Source of the DNA: Candidatus Micrarchaeota archaeon | GTDB taxonomy: Archaea; Micrarchaeota; Micrarchaeia; Micrarchaeales; CABMGC01 | Direction of reading: 5' to 3' | Assembly (NCBI GenBank): GCA_027365725.1 | Contig: DAHXMA010000012.1 | Coordinates: 50,488-114,487 of the forward strand | DNA length: 64,000 nt | In this document: piece by piece, positions 2-61,914 of the stretch | How positions within the stretch are numbered: position 1 is the first letter of the stretch | Layout: every line of letters starts with the position of its first letter | Translations under genes and position numbers: made by a program | Notes under the pieces: generated by a model | Seen by the model: the letters and a program-made list of their open reading frames with translations, nothing else | The model's database searches: none | What the model was told of the DNA's origin: nothing

Positions 2-232
2 GAGCCGTGGAAGCTTGCCGATGTTGACGAGCGCGCGGCTCGCGAAGTGCTATTTGCATGCGCAACCCTATGCAGGATGATAGGCATACTCGTATACCCA
101 TTCATGCCTGGTGCTGCCGAGAGGATGCTCGGATACATAGGCGAAAAGCCGTCTGGCTATGGCAAGGCGGTGGAAATACCGGCAAGCTTTAGCATAAAGG
201 AGCACGGGATACTGTTCAAGAAGATCGAGTAG
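2..232 (+). CDS. metG: Methionyl-tRNA synthetase, C-terminal fragment (5' part outside window)
   Basis: Frame is open from the window edge to TAG at 230-232. EPWKLADVDERAAREVLFACATLCRMIGILVYPFMPGAAERMLGYIG resembles the end of the class I MetRS anticodon-binding domain (PWKL...L.PFMP). Confidence 0.6.
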   Translation, partial: EPWKLADVDERAAREVLFACATLCRMIGILVYPFMPGAAERMLGYIGEKPSGYGKAVEIPASFSIKEHGILFKKIE

Positions 233-293
233 GCATGCCGGTTGGCCGCCAGTAATAGAGCCATATTTTTATACCTTGGGCACCAATCAATAA

Positions 294-345
294 GTGTGAT
301 GATCGAGAACTGTCTGATCCGTGATGACGATCTTGAGTGCTGATC
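294..345 (+). ncRNA. C/D box sRNA (2'-O-methylation guide)
   Basis: C box GTGATGA 296-302; 11-nt guide TCGAGAACTGT 303-313; D' box CTGA 314-317; 3-nt spacer; C' box GTGATGA 321-327; 12-nt guide CGATCTTGAGTG 328-339; D box CTGA 340-343. This is the canonical archaeal C-guide-D'-C'-guide-D layout. Exact ends are not determinable. Confidence 0.8.
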
Positions 346-348
346 TGC

Positions 349-570
349 ATGGGTACTATATCTAGAAGTGCCATAAGGAAGCTGGTAAAGAAGCATTTTG
401 ATGTTAATATCACCGAAGATGGGGCAGAGGAGATAGCCAAGATACTTGAGATCGAAGCCTCTAAAATATCTGATTTTGCGGTAAGGAACTCCAAGAAAAG
501 CGGGACCGGAAAGGTGACCAAGAAGGACATACGCGAATACGTAATAAAGGGCGGGGAATGGAAAGCGTAA
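349..570 (+). CDS. Archaeal histone (histone-fold DNA-binding protein)
   Basis: 73 aa from ATG 349. ISRSAIRKLVKK...ITEDGAEEIAKILEIEASKISDFAVRNSKKSGTGKVTKKDIREYV follows the HMf-type pattern (loop1-alpha2-...-RKT(v)..DI). The ORF-track GTG at 337 lies inside the sRNA guide. Confidence 0.75.
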   Translation: MGTISRSAIRKLVKKHFDVNITEDGAEEIAKILEIEASKISDFAVRNSKKSGTGKVTKKDIREYVIKGGEWKA

Positions 571-1112
571 TGCTGCATTTAAGCAGCTGCGGCAGGGTTT
601 TTACTGGGCTTTATCACAGGGAGAAGGATAAGTTCTTTTGCCTTGCTGAGCCAACGTCGTCTGGAGTCCTTGTTACGGAATTTAATTCTGAGGGGGAAGT
701 AGTGAATCAGGCATATGGCAGCAATGTAGATGCGCGCGGGTGTGTGGAAGGATATGTTGGGACAGGGATACAGTACATTGAAGTGAAGGCAGAATACCGC
801 GGAATCGTGATGAACGCAAAGTGCAGGAACTGCGGCGGAACTGGGCTTGTGCGGGAGCTTGACACGCACAAACTCTCTGAGATAAGAGATGTGCCTGTTG
901 TGCCCCTCTTTTTGTGCTCCTCATGCAAAAGCGCACACTATTCCCTTACTGATGCGTATCTGAGGAAACTCGTGGAATCGAACCGGGACCTTTTCGAAGC
1001 TGATGAGCTTGCTGGAATTTCCGCAGATATGAATGGGTCCATAAATACGCTGCAGGAGTACATAATAAGAATTTTTGCTTCCAAGAAGATTAGCAGGGCA
1101 ACGCCAAGATGA
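558..1112 (+). CDS. Hypothetical protein with CxxCGGTG / CxxC zinc-ribbon-like motifs
   Basis: 184-aa ORF with CRNCGGTGLV ... CSSCKSAH. An alternative ATG at 570 overlaps the histone stop (TAATG). No family recognised. Confidence 0.5.
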   Translation: MESVMLHLSSCGRVFTGLYHREKDKFFCLAEPTSSGVLVTEFNSEGEVVNQAYGSNVDARGCVEGYVGTGIQYIEVKAEYRGIVMNAKCRNCGGTGLVRELDTHKLSEIRDVPVVPLFLCSSCKSAHYSLTDAYLRKLVESNRDLFEADELAGISADMNGSINTLQEYIIRIFASKKISRATPR

Positions 1113-37218: not shown

Positions 37219-37303
37219 GCGCCAGTAGTCTAGCCTGGCAGGACTTCGCCTTCCCAAAAATTGGAAAAAGGCGAAAACCCGGGTTCAAATCCCGGCTGGC
37301 GCA
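37219..37303 (+). tRNA. tRNA-Gly (anticodon CCC) with 12-nt intron at canonical position 37/38
   Basis: Acceptor GCGCCAG/CTGGCGC + A, D-arm GTCT-AGCCTGGCA-GGAC, anticodon stem TCGCC/GGCGA enclosing 19 nt. Fold: TTCC/GGAA 4-bp helix flanked by 3-nt bulges CAA and AAA. Removing 37257-37268 gives loop TTCCCAA. T-arm CCGGG-TTCAAAT-CCCGG. An AT-rich TATA-like stretch lies at 37183-37195. Confidence 0.8.
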
Positions 37304-42557: not shown

Positions 42558-43724
42558 CTACGGCTGCATCCAGTCTATCTCATAATATTCGTTCGGGCTG
42601 CCCTTGAGCTTTATTTGCCTTACTCTATAGTAAGTAACTGACGTTTCCCTATCAGCTATTGCAAGTACAAGGTCAAGGCCTGCGTCATCCGCTGCCTTTA
42701 TCGCGTTTGCAAATTCATTACCACCAATATATTCCTCTTCGCTTAGGGACAGCATGGCAAATTTTGGCCTGTCCTTCTTCGGGTTGTCTGCATCGCTTCC
42801 CTGCCTATGGTACAATAAATAATCTATTGATGCAGTTGCAGGCTTAGTTCTACCCGGGACAGCCAGGATAAAAGTCTTCCTTACTGAATGCGCAACGCGT
42901 ATAACGCGCGCCCACTCGGATATTAATAGCTTAGAATTCTTTGGGAATACGTGTATAACATGCTTAGAATGAATCCAATCCTTCCCTTCAGCCCCTCCAC
43001 CAAAGGGCTTCGCTCCGGAGAAATATACGCGGAAATGGGTGCCGAATTTAAACCCAGTCTTTATTACATAGCCTCTCTCCCTCCAATCTGCGTAGACCCC
43101 GTATAACTTAGAAAAATCACTTCTCCTTGAGGAGGCTGCCACTATCACCCCCCCAACAGAGGTGTTCTTCAGTTTCAGCATCTTTCTTCGGCAAAGGAAA
43201 ACAGTTTCATAGGCATCAAGCTTATTCAGCCTGCCCCTATCTACGGCCTTATAGGACCCGTATTGGCCAAACCAGAAATCATCGTACAGCGCCTTCCCGG
43301 CTTTACTATCATCAACAATTGTTATAAGGTCTGACTTAAAGAATATTCCAGCTACCGAAAAACGCGGCATTTTCAAAGGAGTCATGGGATACTCCTTCTG
43401 CTGCCTTGCGCTGCCGCGCATGCCGTCTTTGGGCTCCACTATCACCAGCCCACGATCCCTCCAGTCCTTATATGTAAAGTATCTGGCAGCGAACTTTTTA
43501 GCCTTCAGAAAACCAGAAGCCATCTCGTTGAAACTTACCAACCCACGCTCAGACCGACATTCAGCATTCCTCACATCTATAAGGTAAAGCGCCTCTTCAG
43601 CCGTAAGCTCAACAGTCCCTCCCTCACGTTTCCTGCCAAAATATCCACGCATGGCAGCATCGACTCCGGCAGGATCCGATACAATGAACTTTCCTCCAGA
43701 ATAATATATATTTATCATTAACAT
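42558..43724 (-). CDS. endA: tRNA-splicing endonuclease, multi-unit (three-unit, epsilon-type-like) form
   Basis: Unit 1: EndA N-domain-like (GYFGRK...LTAEEALYLID...YFTYKDWRDRGLVI) without a catalytic C-domain. Unit 2: full unit with catalytic motifs (VYADWRERGYVIKTGFKFGTHFRVY, HSKHVIHV, SVRKTFILAV). Unit 3: an extra C-domain-like segment (LDLVLAIADRETSVTYYRVRQI). Confidence 0.8.
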   Translation of the reverse strand: MLMINIYYSGGKFIVSDPAGVDAAMRGYFGRKREGGTVELTAEEALYLIDVRNAECRSERGLVSFNEMASGFLKAKKFAARYFTYKDWRDRGLVIVEPKDGMRGSARQQKEYPMTPLKMPRFSVAGIFFKSDLITIVDDSKAGKALYDDFWFGQYGSYKAVDRGRLNKLDAYETVFLCRRKMLKLKNTSVGGVIVAASSRRSDFSKLYGVYADWRERGYVIKTGFKFGTHFRVYFSGAKPFGGGAEGKDWIHSKHVIHVFPKNSKLLISEWARVIRVAHSVRKTFILAVPGRTKPATASIDYLLYHRQGSDADNPKKDRPKFAMLSLSEEEYIGGNEFANAIKAADDAGLDLVLAIADRETSVTYYRVRQIKLKGSPNEYYEIDWMQP

Positions 43725-58958: not shown

Positions 58959-59048
58959 GCAGGGGTGGCAGAGCTTGGCCAAATGCGCTGGCTTGAGGGG
59001 TCAGTAGCTTTAGTGCTTGCGTGAGTTCAAATCTCACCCCCTGCACCA
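58959..59048 (+). tRNA. tRNA-Leu (anticodon GAG), CCA encoded
   Basis: Acceptor GCAGGGG/CCCCTGC, anticodon stem CTGGC/GTCAG, loop TTGAGGG, long variable arm, T-arm GTGAG-TTCAAAT-CTCAC, ACCA 3' end. Confidence 0.85.
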
Positions 59049-61192: not shown

Positions 61193-61286
61193 GGGGTCGT
61201 CTGCTAGCTTGGTTAGGCTCTGTGCTTAGGGAGCATAAGACCCGAGTTCAAAATGGCCCAAAACCATGAAAATCTCGGCGACCCCG
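61193..61286 (+). tRNA. tRNA (Pro-like; anticodon reads AGG) with 20-nt non-canonical intron in the T-loop (59/60)
   Basis: Acceptor GGGGTCG/CGACCCC, anticodon stem TGTGC/GCATA, loop TTAGGGA, variable AGAC, T-stem CCGAG (61242-46)/CTCGG (61274-78) enclosing 27 nt. Fold: TTCA/TGAA 4-bp helix, 3-nt bulges AAA and AAT on opposite strands, inner TGG/CCA stem. Excising 61253-61272 yields T-loop TTCAAAT. Confidence 0.7.
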
Positions 61287-61299
61287 ATTGGTGTTAAAC

Positions 61300-61914
61300 A
61301 TGACTAACGAACTGTTGATCGACCAGGCCACATATCTTGAGGCAGGGATACACATAGGCACAAAGATAAAGACCCCGGGGATGAAGAGGTTCATATACAA
61401 GATAAGGGAGGACGGACTGTACCTGCTCGAACTCAACACTATAGACCAGAGGATAAGGGAAGCGGCAAAGCTTCTTGCGCAGTACGAGCCAAAGGACATA
61501 GTTATAACTGCGTCAAGGATATACGCCATAGCTTCAGCATCAAAATTCGCAGAAATAACTAAATCAAAGCTTCTTGTAGGAAGGGTCATACCAGGCACAT
61601 TTACAAATCCAAACAGGGAAGACTACATAGAGCCAGGCATAGTCCTGCTGAGCGACACCAGGAACGAGCGCCAGGCGGTAAAGGAAGCAAGCTCTACCGA
61701 CATACCTATAATAGCTCTATGCGACACCGACAACTGGATAAAGTTTGTTGACCTTGTGGTTCCGTGCAACAATAAGGGAAGGCGCGCATTGGCACTTATC
61801 TATTTCCTACTTGCAAGGGAATTCCAAAAAGAGAAAGGGTTAATAAAAACAAACGAGGAATTCACGTATAAGGTCTCTGACTTTGAAGCAAAGGTCGAGA
61901 TGAAGGCGAAGTAA
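61300..61914 (+). CDS. rps2: Ribosomal protein S2 (uS2)
   Basis: LLIDQATYLEAGIHIGTK...RFIYKIREDGLYLLEL...ALCDTD. ATG 61300 lies 14 nt after the tRNA. Confidence 0.9.
   Translation: MTNELLIDQATYLEAGIHIGTKIKTPGMKRFIYKIREDGLYLLELNTIDQRIREAAKLLAQYEPKDIVITASRIYAIASASKFAEITKSKLLVGRVIPGTFTNPNREDYIEPGIVLLSDTRNERQAVKEASSTDIPIIALCDTDNWIKFVDLVVPCNNKGRRALALIYFLLAREFQKEKGLIKTNEEFTYKVSDFEAKVEMKAK

Follow-up and report, generated by a model that had tools for sequence, protein, structure and literature searches.

The interval between rpoN and ribosomal protein S2 in this stretch of DNA raises the question of whether a sequence that tRNA finders miss is a working gene for tRNA-Pro and, if so, how an ultrasmall archaeon uses a proline tRNA with adenosine at position 34. 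According to reviews, Archaea make little or no use of A34 (e.g. PMC8879553). The first-pass annotation of the window (the whole 64,000-nt stretch that was analysed) had proposed a tRNA with an intron in its T-loop and with anticodon AGG, in a slot where a tRNA is common. Its readings of the acceptor stem, the anticodon arm, the T-stem with 27 enclosed nucleotides, the variable region and G37 all agree with the window, and the slot between rpoN and S2 does hold an orthologous tRNA-Pro in 75 of the 80 related species-level genomes of Micrarchaeota; when metagenomes are included, about 120 orthologues occupy the same position. The evidence described below indicates that the locus is very probably a functional, independently promoted tRNA-Pro(AGG) gene, with a transcript spliced by EndA and a product that decodes CCU and CCC.

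Table 1. Features of the tRNA-Pro locus and of the splicing endonuclease gene, in window coordinates
Feature	Position	Strand	Basis or remarks
TATA-like box TTTAAAA	61161..61167	+	26-32 nt upstream of tRNA 5' end
tRNA-Pro(AGG) gene, Micrarchaeota	61193-61286	+	sequence; 94 nt; intron-split in T-loop
5' exon	61193..61252	+	sequence; ARAGORN call of spliced form; covariation
Acceptor stem GGGGTCG / CGACCCC	61193-61199 / 61279-61285	+	sequence
Anticodon AGG	61228..61230	+	A34 = 61228; G35-G36 = 61229-61230
G37	61231	+	sequence; anticodon flanked by U33 and G37
hBHBh' motif	61242..61278	+	outer helix = T-stem CCGAG/CTCGG
T-stem CCGAG / CTCGG	61242-61246 / 61274-61278	+	27 nt enclosed
BHB central helix TTCA / TGAA	61247-61250 / 61267-61270	+	sequence; 4 bp
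BHB bulges AAA and AAT	61251-61253 and 61271-61273	+	sequence; 3 nt each
BHB inner helix TGG / CCA	61254-61256 / 61264-61266	+	sequence; 3 bp, 7-nt loop
Intron ATGGCCCAAAACCATGAAAA	61253..61272	+	20 nt; T-loop 59/60 junction
3' exon	61273..61286	+	T-loop nucleotide 60 (T), T-stem and acceptor 3' strands, discriminator G
Discriminator G	61286	+	sequence
Shine-Dalgarno-like GGTG and ATG of ribosomal protein S2	61290..61302	+	4-14 nt past tRNA 3' end
EndA, three-unit epsilon2-type, 388 aa	42558..43724	-	Pfam tRNA_int_endo and tRNA_int_endo_N

The 5' exon (Table 1) contains the 5' strand of the acceptor stem, the D arm, the anticodon arm, a 4-nt variable region, the 5' strand of the T-stem and TTCAAA (positions 54-59). 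In the window the anticodon stem TGTGC/GCATA surrounds the loop TTAGGGA, and the 3' exon has no encoded CCA. The D stem is weak: in 40 of 45 distinct orthologue sequences it contains the mismatch U10.U25. Judged by its sequence, the TTTAAAA box is likely an archaeal promoter; nearly all orthologues have an equally spaced A/T box upstream (TTAAAAA, ATAAATA or GATAAAAA). GGTG lies just 5' of the S2 start in most orthologues, and S2 is presumably co-transcribed with the tRNA.

The interrupted T-arm forms a strict hBHBh' motif, with two 3-nt bulges on opposite strands, 4 bp between them, and both an outer and an inner helix. When the 20 nt are deleted in silico, ARAGORN calls a 74-nt tRNA-Pro(agg) with the T-loop TTCAAAT, identical to that of two naturally intronless orthologues (L052 and L091), and the cloverleaf of this spliced form is borne out by covariation as well. 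The proposals that a T-loop intron lies at 59/60 within a strict BHB, and that cutting after the second nucleotide of each bulge rebuilds the T-loop, are thus sustained by in-silico excision, by the geometry of the orthologues and by covariation. With A-runs on either side, the splice junction can be placed from sequence alone only to within about 3 nt; its assignment to 59/60 comes solely from the BHB cutting rule. Among shuffles of the 20-nt insert, the central helix is recovered in 0.7%, and its combination with an inner helix of 3 bp or more in a fraction of 5e-6.

The precursor escapes the usual detectors. ARAGORN makes no call with its intron option either on or off, and Rfam yields no match at the gathering threshold (29 bits for the tRNA family, RF00005) or at E <= 10, as expected from the 20-nt insert in the T-loop. 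The intronless orthologue L052 (2661-2734) scores 52.7 bits against the Rfam tRNA model. The missed precursor reflects what these detectors are able to recognise and does not count against the gene. No further disrupted tRNA was found in the whole window by a permissive Rfam pass.

The orthologues provide a natural series of insert arrangements. Among 123 that could be parsed, 84 have an insert at 59/60 only, 31 have inserts at both 53/54 and 59/60, 6 have one at 53/54 only, and 2 have none. The inserts are 11-33 nt long, and in-silico splicing produces the T-loop TTCAAAT in all 123 cases; the two intronless genes read exactly TTCAAAT. In the genome-derived set with a 59/60 insert (71 loci plus the window, or 72 genes), every gene has a fully paired (4/4) central helix and 3-nt bulges, and in some orthologues the inner helix consists of a single pair closing a GNRA-type tetraloop.

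These comparisons bear on the possibility that the 20 nt are retained, either as an enlarged structured T-loop of the mature tRNA or as part of some other structured RNA. Thermodynamic prediction leans that way, in that the nearest-neighbour minimum free energy fold (-35.8 kcal/mol) is a plain hairpin in an enlarged loop and lacks the central BHB helix; for the cloverleaf combined with the BHB, the evaluated energy is -27.0 kcal/mol. This fold was not counted against the BHB because an A/U-rich helix of 4 bp is marginal by itself and the comparative support is strong. Retention is hard to reconcile with inserts that range from 0 to 33 nt among orthologues while their flanks always rebuild TTCAAAT, or with the finding that the only constrained insert positions are those of the BHB central helix and bulges. 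An unspliced T-loop is also incompatible with the conserved contacts between the T-loop and the D-loop. In addition, the gene for a matching epsilon2 EndA lies nearby, and the ARMAN-2 orthologue of this enzyme has been seen to cleave a 59/60 intron in vitro (PMC3239211). Retention is accordingly rated highly improbable.

Covariation supports both the cloverleaf and the splicing motif. Across the orthologues, 95.6% of cells in the cloverleaf pair, and 8 pairs are changed on both sides, compared to 1.8 in shuffles (0 of 500 reach 8) and 0-2 in a control with slid partners. Compensatory changes occur in all four cloverleaf stems, and two pairs of the T-stem that are changed on both sides span the insert. 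For the BHB, analysed in the subset with 21-nt inserts, 99.6% of cells pair (81.7% when shuffled and 28-49% when slid), and all 5 pairs of the inner helix covary. On the intron side of the central helix the only substitution is A to G, so that pairing with the exon U is kept. The mature sequence, which exists in 45 distinct versions, is 94% conserved per column.

Could the locus nonetheless be a decaying pseudogene, its T-loop broken by an insertion and its product either not expressed or not functional? The failure of tRNA finders on the precursor and the U.U mismatch in the D stem might suggest so, as might one related locus (L079) that carries a decayed relic in the same slot, beside a tRNA-Pro(GGG) gene. 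However, a decaying gene would not be expected to combine the column conservation and the four-stem compensation just described with BHB geometry that all orthologues with an insert maintain even though the insert sequence is otherwise free to vary, with a conserved TATA-like box upstream, and with codon usage adapted to the anticodon (see below). The pseudogene reading is already contradicted by the conservation data, and we regard it as extremely improbable.

The A at position 34 is genuine. It is present in six independent assemblies of the organism; five are identical over the 94 nt, and the sixth differs only at one base of the D stem. The anticodon loop reads YTAGGGN in all 75 genome orthologues, and a metagenome scan with this tRNA body pattern returned 51 copies, all with A34; G, C and U did not occur at this position. 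G35, G36 and G37, the last being the site of m1G37, are invariant in the 45 distinct orthologue sequences. The first-pass annotation had named a G at 61228 as the observation that would overturn its assignment of AGG (Pro); the six assemblies all retain A, and the genomic and metagenomic copies concur. A sequencing or assembly error hiding a true GGG anticodon would restore the archaeal norm of G34 and would match the ARMAN-2 homologue, which was published as GGG (PMC3239211), but in the face of these independent copies that explanation is refuted and retains practically no probability. A misregistered anticodon loop was likewise considered and rejected: compensatory changes in the 5-bp stem (G-C to C-G, G-U to A-U and U-A to C-G) fix a 7-nt loop, YUAGGGN.

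A34 is confined to tRNA-Pro. The tRNA-Leu of the window (58959-59048) has the anticodon GAG, as does that of 78 related loci. The search for a tRNA-Pro(GGG) came up empty in the 64 kb of the window and, with the exception of L079, in 0.78 Mb of related loci; L079 has a conventional tRNA-Pro(GGG) gene beside the relic mentioned above and lacks an intact AGG gene. A plus-strand fragment at L079 had been entertained as a two-intron orthologue with G34, but was rejected and is read as a relic, because the acceptor 5' strand and the D arm are missing and the 3' side of the T-stem is unpaired.

Proline codon usage has shifted in parallel with the anticodon. Codons were counted in conserved ribosomal and RNA polymerase genes at 77 phylogenetically related loci. 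The ratio U/(U+C) is 0.68 for proline, compared to 0.15-0.53 in every other Y-ending box, so that U is preferred over C in the proline box only (CCU > CCC). The proline excess is seen in 68 of 74 loci; L079, which is the sole control locus with a clear G34 gene, uses 3 CCU and 12 CCC. CCC still makes up 14% of the proline codons in highly expressed genes. The preference for U is compatible with A34 and I34 alike, and does not separate the two decoding models.

The first-pass annotation had also pointed to a candidate endonuclease at 42558-43724, and this gene proved to encode a full-length epsilon2 EndA. Residues 2-388 align to residues 3-387 of ARMAN-2 EndA (PDB 4FZ2) with E = 1.7e-139, and the 388-aa protein has the single-chain architecture of the epsilon2 class (about 390 aa, with alphaN, catalytic alpha and betaC units). 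The catalytic residues Y234/H252/K283 correspond to Y236/H251/K282 of ARMAN-2, the ASL lysine K159 (in GSYK) to K161, and the pocket K222 and L10 D358 to K224 and D357, the L10-pocket pair being needed for dimerisation. K161, K224, Y236/H251/K282 and D357 have been tested experimentally in the ARMAN-2 enzyme (PMC3239211, PMC3488258), and all of the tested residues are kept in the window protein. By analogy, this EndA is expected to be the enzyme that excises the intron. The accompanying claim that such an intron requires an enzyme of broad specificity did not survive: a strict hBHBh' does not in itself need one, and the alpha4 and alpha'2 classes of EndA recognise strict motifs too (PMC3488258).

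Neither the T-loop intron nor A34 is a new feature, since each was previously published for ARMAN lineages. Fujishima et al. (2011) described an ARMAN-2 pre-tRNA-Pro with T-loop introns at 53/54 and 59/60 (PMC3239211, Fig. 1C). ARMAN-2 (Ca. Micrarchaeum acidiphilum) belongs to the same phylum, and its pre-tRNA-Pro resembles the window gene in amino acid identity, in a strict hBHBh' at 59/60 and in the presence of an epsilon2 EndA. Its two-intron layout is that of 31 of the 123 orthologues, whereas the window gene has the 59/60 intron only. Its published anticodon is GGG, in contrast to AGG in the window gene and every orthologue, a comparison in which ARMAN-2 is known by its label only; ARMAN-2 S2 is absent among the 120 S2 homologues listed. 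In vitro, the ARMAN-2 EndA cleaves pre-tRNA-Cys at its 59/60 intron in the T-loop (PMC3239211, PMC3488258). That substrate shares the intron position with the window gene and is cut by the enzyme to which the window EndA aligns, but it is a different tRNA with a relaxed hBH motif rather than a strict hBHBh'.

For A34, the closest precedent is the tRNA-Pro(AGG) reported in ARMAN-4 and ARMAN-5 by Fujishima et al. (2011; PMC3239211), where archaeal tRNA-Pro genes with A34 replace the G34 isoacceptor, as is proposed here. These Parvarchaeota differ in several respects: they belong to another DPANN phylum, have an EndA of the alpha4 type and few disrupted tRNAs (PMC3239211), and carry A34 in tRNA-Leu(AAG) as well. 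Thermoproteales and other Crenarchaeota also have BHB introns outside 37/38, including in the T-loop, together with an EndA of broad specificity (PMC3488258). Their (alpha-beta)2 enzyme comes from an unrelated lineage and has a Crenarchaea-specific loop instead of the ASL, a difference interpreted as convergence (PMC3488258). The suggestion that non-canonical introns belong mainly to Thermoproteales and some DPANN lineages fits here in its DPANN part, namely Micrarchaeota, while Thermoproteales is not the lineage concerned. Non-canonical BHB introns in Crenarchaeota tRNAs were reportedly described by Marck and Grosjean in 2003.

The following pathway is proposed for the window gene, in which we infer cleavage, ligation and aminoacylation with proline. 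The primary transcript would contain the 20-nt intron, and in the precursor a helix would form between T-loop nucleotides 54-57 (UUCA) and the UGAA that lies close to the 3' end of the intron; the T-stem outside it and UGG/CCA inside it would complete the strict hBHBh'. A homodimeric epsilon2 EndA would cut after the second nucleotide of each bulge, an RNA ligase would join the exons to give the T-loop UUCAAAU, and CCA would be added post-transcriptionally. The mature tRNA-Pro(AGG) would take the place of the tRNA-Pro(GGG) of other archaea and decode CCU and CCC. Most likely, on a modest balance of probability, A34 remains unmodified; CCU would then be read in Watson-Crick mode and CCC by a protonated A.C wobble, in the manner of the Salmonella GGG-to-AGG mutant of tRNA-Pro. 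According to the account of that mutant (Chen et al. 2002) in PMC6103715, tRNA-Pro(AGG) with unmodified A34 reads CCC efficiently. It involves the same anticodon change in the same codon box, but is a bacterial laboratory mutant and not an archaeon.

The gene and its splicing would be the same if A34 were instead converted to inosine by an unrecognised archaeal wobble deaminase, with IGG reading CCU, CCC and CCA as in eukaryotes. Strict fixation of A34 and the continued use of CCC in highly expressed genes would suit such a conversion. Reviews hold that an encoded A34 almost always becomes I34 (PMC6103715), and the ARMAN-4/-5 pattern of A34 without G34 has been likened to the eukaryotic strategy (Fujishima et al. 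2011; PMC3239211). The eukaryotic tRNA-Pro(IGG) made by ADAT2/3 serves the same codon box, but by a eukaryotic pathway. Against inosine, a scan of the 64-kb window and of 0.78 Mb of related loci, which amount to a small fraction of each genome, detected no signature of a CDA-fold deaminase; the H/C-A-E ... PCxxC zinc motif matched DnaJ zinc fingers and nothing else. Wobble inosine is, to our knowledge, unreported in Archaea, and a literature search for A34 or a tRNA adenosine deaminase in Micrarchaeota or DPANN brought up no relevant report. The restriction of A34 to tRNA-Pro implies that no dedicated enzyme is needed, and unmodified A34 in tRNA-Pro suffices in Salmonella (PMC6103715). Inosine is the main alternative, a possible but rather unlikely state of this tRNA. 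Taken together, the Salmonella mutant and the eukaryotic tRNA show that service of CCU and CCC by a proline tRNA with anticodon AGG is possible whether it is deaminated or not.

The novelty lies in the fixation of A34 throughout a clade of Micrarchaeota and in the matching codon usage. The A34 tRNA-Pro is fixed in about 75 species-level genomes and 51 metagenome contigs, with a shift to CCU, and what had been a passing remark on ARMAN-4/-5 in 2011 becomes a clade-wide, selectable trait. The orthologue series, which spans no intron, 59/60 or 53/54 alone, and both introns, is a natural record of the gain, loss and minimisation of T-loop introns with the BHB motif as the sole constraint. The example further illustrates why the genomes of Micrarchaeota are under-annotated by standard tRNA finders. 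In its boldest and doubtful form, the finding would mean that a large Micrarchaeota clade swapped the universal archaeal G34 proline tRNA for one in which an undiscovered archaeal wobble deaminase turns A34 into inosine; if true, I34 decoding would be documented in Archaea for the first time, with an origin independent of bacterial TadA and eukaryotic ADAT2/3. In a milder version, if true, unmodified A34 would be routine in free-living cytoplasmic translation, which would break the archaeal no-A34 rule. Co-cultures of Micrarchaeota exist, placing the choice between wobble inosine and a tolerated, unmodified A34 in Archaea within reach of tRNA-seq.

The 27-nt T loop of the tRNA-Pro(AGG) gene contains a bulge-helix-bulge (BHB) splicing motif in its strict form (hBHBh'), and the bases that the first-pass annotation had read across the gene proved correct throughout (see table). 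Along the 5' strand the motif runs from outer helix to central helix to 5' bulge, and on the 3' strand the 3' bulge adjoins the outer helix; the T arm here has the layout that the anticodon arm shows in a canonical 37/38 BHB. When the 20-nt insert was shuffled, 0.7% of trials gave the central helix again; a fraction of 5e-6 gave it together with an inner helix of 3 bp or more. A-runs beside the insert leave the junction uncertain by up to 3 nt from sequence alone, and it was set at 59/60 because of the BHB cutting rule.

Features of the tRNA-Pro(AGG) gene and of other elements in the window
Feature	Window position	Strand	Sequence or size	Remark
tRNA-Pro(AGG) gene	61193-61286	+	94 nt
Acceptor stem		+	GGGGTCG/CGACCCC
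D arm		+	TGCT/GGCT	U10.U25 mismatch (61202/61219); loop with A14, G18-G19, A21
Anticodon stem		+	TGTGC/GCATA	loop TTAGGGA
Anticodon base 34	61228	+	A
Variable region		+	4 nt
T stem		+	CCGAG/CTCGG	loop 27 nt, usually 7
BHB central helix	61247-61250/61267-61270	+	TTCA/TGAA
BHB bulges	61251-61253, 61271-61273	+	AAA, AAT	3 nt each, opposite strands
BHB inner helix		+	TGG/CCA	loop 7 nt
Proposed intron	61253-61272	+	20 nt	59/60
Shine-Dalgarno-like motif	61290-61293	+	GGTG
S2 start codon	61300	+
tRNA-Leu(GAG)	58959-59045	+
Predicted EndA ORF	42558-43724	-	388 aa	N-terminal and catalytic tRNA-intron endonuclease domains
Probable tRNA-Gly(CCC)	37219-37303	+	85 nt	12-nt intron
C/D-box sRNA-like element	292-351	+	C and C' GTGATGA; D' and D CTGA	all four boxes present
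Probably spurious ORF	216-578	-		overlaps the sRNA-like element

Of 45 distinct orthologue sequences, 40 share the U10.U25 mismatch and the remaining five have G10.U25; G10 is the norm in archaeal tRNAs. [quoted passage not shown]

ARAGORN called five other tRNAs in the window and missed this one, making no call on its unedited sequence with or without the intron option, and an Rfam search of the window gave no match here even at E <= 10. Once the 20 nt are deleted, ARAGORN recognises a tRNA-Pro(agg) of 74 nt whose T loop is TTCAAAT; the intronless orthologue of the related locus L052 reaches 52.7 bits with the Rfam tRNA model (gathering score 29). A negative from a default Rfam run is weak evidence, because tRNA-Leu(GAG), at 47.8 bits in a permissive run, was missing from the gathering-threshold run on the same window, where it was presumably dropped by speed filters.

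The default ARAGORN annotation of another gene, at 37219-37303, as tRNA-Trp(cca) is probably wrong. With the intron option the call becomes tRNA-Gly(ccc), and in that reading the BHB rule fits (central helix TTCC/GGAA, bulges CAA and AAA), with the intron AAAATTGGAAAA at 37/38 and a mature loop TTCCCAA; the acceptor GCGCCAG, too, resembles that of a tRNA-Gly. The C/D-box sRNA-like element matches Rfam sR2 at 27.4 bits (E = 0.052), below the gathering score of 42.

Genes around the tRNA follow the order rpoD, tRNA-Leu(GAG), L18e, L13, S9, rpoN, tRNA-Pro(AGG), S2. A search with the S2 protein retrieved 80 loci, nearly all labelled Micrarchaeota (63-92% identity), which places the window in a Micrarchaeota (DPANN) genome. 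With the 55 nt at the tRNA 5' end as BLAST query, 75 of the 80 genome loci yielded an orthologue immediately ahead of S2, and one further copy is cut by a contig end. Among the 123 orthologues parsed, from genome loci and 51 metagenome contigs, an insert lies at 59/60 only in 84, at both 53/54 and 59/60 in 31 and at 53/54 only in six, and is absent from two (L052 and L091). The 59/60 insert is 11 to 33 nt long and freely variable in sequence, and excision by the BHB rule leaves TTCAAAT in all parsed orthologues, the same T loop as in the naturally intronless genes.

In 45 distinct spliced sequences, 95.6% of cloverleaf cells are paired; both partners have changed in eight pairs, a number reached in 0 of 500 shuffles (mean 1.8), and slid partners give 0-2; two of the eight are T-stem pairs that span the insert. 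In the genome-derived set of 71 loci and the window, every gene with a 59/60 insert (72 of 72) has a fully paired central helix (4/4) and two 3-nt bulges. For the genes with 21-nt inserts, a subset free of gaps, 99.6% of BHB cells are paired, compared with 81.7% when shuffled and 28-49% when slid; all five inner-helix pairs covary, and in the central helix the intron strand varies solely from A to G, so that the invariant uridines of the exon stay paired. Nearly all orthologues have an A/T-rich TATA-like box 26-33 nt ahead of the gene. Taken together, conservation, covariation, the BHB and the TATA-like box exclude a pseudogene or a chance structure, and the comparison argues strongly that the insert is removed, not retained. 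The T-loop BHB insert and AGG anticodon first noticed in this gene are confirmed, and its interpretation as an intron-bearing tRNA-Pro(AGG) gene is supported.

The second insert, at 53/54, occurs in genome loci L012, L013, L016, L020, L022, L034, L035, L039, L040, L044, L046, L056, L062, L069, L070 and L075 and in metagenome loci such as L090 and L103. It is 11-22 nt long, always ends in CGGGAA, and in L098 and L128 contains a tandem duplication (ATTAAACGGGAATTAACGGGAA). Its BHB takes CCCG, which spans the variable region and the T stem, as central helix; because T-stem bases are used, the two BHBs would compete for that stem and need sequential processing. Among the shortest introns, 13-nt inserts at 59/60 (for example L023, L047, L059, L013 and L016), the inner helix is a single covarying pair (A-T, G-C, C-G or T-A) that closes a GNRA-like tetraloop (GAAA, GAGA, GCAA). 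These introns look like repeated minimisation to the acceptance limit of the endonuclease.

The predicted endonuclease aligns end to end with PDB 4FZ2 (E = 1.7e-139), the three-unit epsilon2 EndA of Candidatus Micrarchaeum acidiphilum ARMAN-2. All residues with a mutagenesis-proven role in the ARMAN-2 enzyme are kept: the catalytic triad Y234, H252 and K283 (ARMAN-2 Y236, H251, K282), the ASL lysine K159, in GSYK (K161), and the dimerisation pair K222 and D358 (K224, D357). In the proposed precursor fold, T-loop nucleotides 54-57 would pair with UGAA of the intron, the epsilon2 dimer would cleave each bulge 3' of its second nucleotide, and ligation would restore the T loop; CCA would be added to the transcript. 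Cleavage of this precursor by the window EndA is predicted from a close experimental analogue, since ARMAN-2 EndA cleaves the 59/60 intron of pre-tRNA-Cys in vitro (PMC3239211). The first-pass statement that non-canonical introns need a broad-specificity enzyme was overstated for a strict hBHBh' (PMC3488258), although the co-occurrence of intron and enzyme is real.

The S2 start codon lies 13 nt past the tRNA discriminator base. The intervening Shine-Dalgarno-like motif recurs in most orthologues, and no T-run terminator was found at 61287-61302, from the tRNA to the S2 start. The S2 mRNA may arise from a tRNA-S2 co-transcript via 3' tRNA processing.

The usual archaeal base at position 34 is G, and it had been considered that resequencing might show G at 61228; this did not hold, since six of six independent assemblies have A34. 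All six carry the same S2 protein, five with an identical 94-nt tRNA gene and the sixth with one D-stem base different. The anticodon loop is YTAGGGN in 75/75 genome orthologues, its register fixed by compensatory changes in the anticodon stem, and a degenerate pattern of the tRNA body found 51 matches with A34 in the metagenome collection and none with C, G or T. A34 is proline-specific, the neighbouring tRNA-Leu being GAG in the window and 78 related loci. In locus L080, ARAGORN calls a tRNA-Ser(aga) with a 15-nt intron (1185-1287) in the slot held by tRNA-Leu(gag) in 78 other loci; this is probably a misparsed intron-containing tRNA-Leu, and if real would be a second A34 tRNA.

In L079, a more distant Micrarchaeota genome, the region at about 2748-2985 contains a conventional intronless tRNA-Pro(GGG) between rpoN and S2 on the opposite (minus) strand, and of the intron-bearing gene just a decayed relic, which suggests that AGG and GGG genes are functionally interchangeable. 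Acceptor and D arm are missing from the plus-strand relic, in which an anticodon hairpin of the GGG type and the two T-loop insert patterns are still present; it has an 11-nt anticodon-arm sequence in common with the functional gene, and the locus looks like gene replacement or recombination. In L050, rpoN directly abuts S2 with no tRNA in between (proline codons 1 CCU vs 14 CCC), and in L057 the upstream context differs; in these two the tRNA-Pro gene must lie elsewhere in the genome or be of another type.

Codon usage in seven conserved genes around the tRNA (rpoD, L18e, L13, S9, rpoN, S2 and DnaJ; 77 loci) shows the U-ending codon exceeding the C-ending one in the proline box only, with U/(U+C) of 0.68 for proline and 0.15-0.53 for all other four-fold boxes and two-fold pyrimidine pairs. 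The proline excess is seen in 68 of 74 loci (median +0.24), whose phylogenetic relatedness inflates nominal p-values; L079, with its GGG gene, has 3 CCU vs 12 CCC, the clean control group being this single genome. The direction of the shift is that predicted for a working A34 or I34 anticodon. CCC makes up about 14% of proline codons, so it must still be read. Deamination to inosine is a serious alternative, because other organisms usually convert an encoded A34 and because the search of the window and 0.78 Mb of related loci, in which no deaminase signature appeared, covered less than one tenth of any one genome. An unmodified A34 in the mature tRNA is nevertheless favoured, because of that negative result, because A34 occurs in a single tRNA here, and because a tRNA-Pro mutant of Salmonella (GGG to AGG) whose A34 is unmodified matches the wild type in the efficiency of CCC reading, via a protonated A.C pair (PMC6103715).

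From ARMAN-2, Fujishima et al. (2011, PMC3239211) described a pre-tRNA-Pro whose 53/54 and 59/60 introns both have a strict BHB, a 59/60 intron in tRNA-Cys and the epsilon2 endonuclease, and from ARMAN-4 and ARMAN-5 they described A34 in tRNA-Pro(AGG) and tRNA-Leu(AAG), so that the window gene is a further case of a known type, of modest novelty. The ARMAN-2 tRNA-Pro is labelled GGG in that paper, in contrast to AGG here; this means either that ARMAN-2 falls outside the A34 clade, for which the L079 relic of GGG type leaves room, or that the label should be checked again. In the literature searched, there appears to be no report of A34 fixed across a large Micrarchaeota clade, of its limitation to proline in such a clade, or of Micrarchaeota proline codon usage tracking it.
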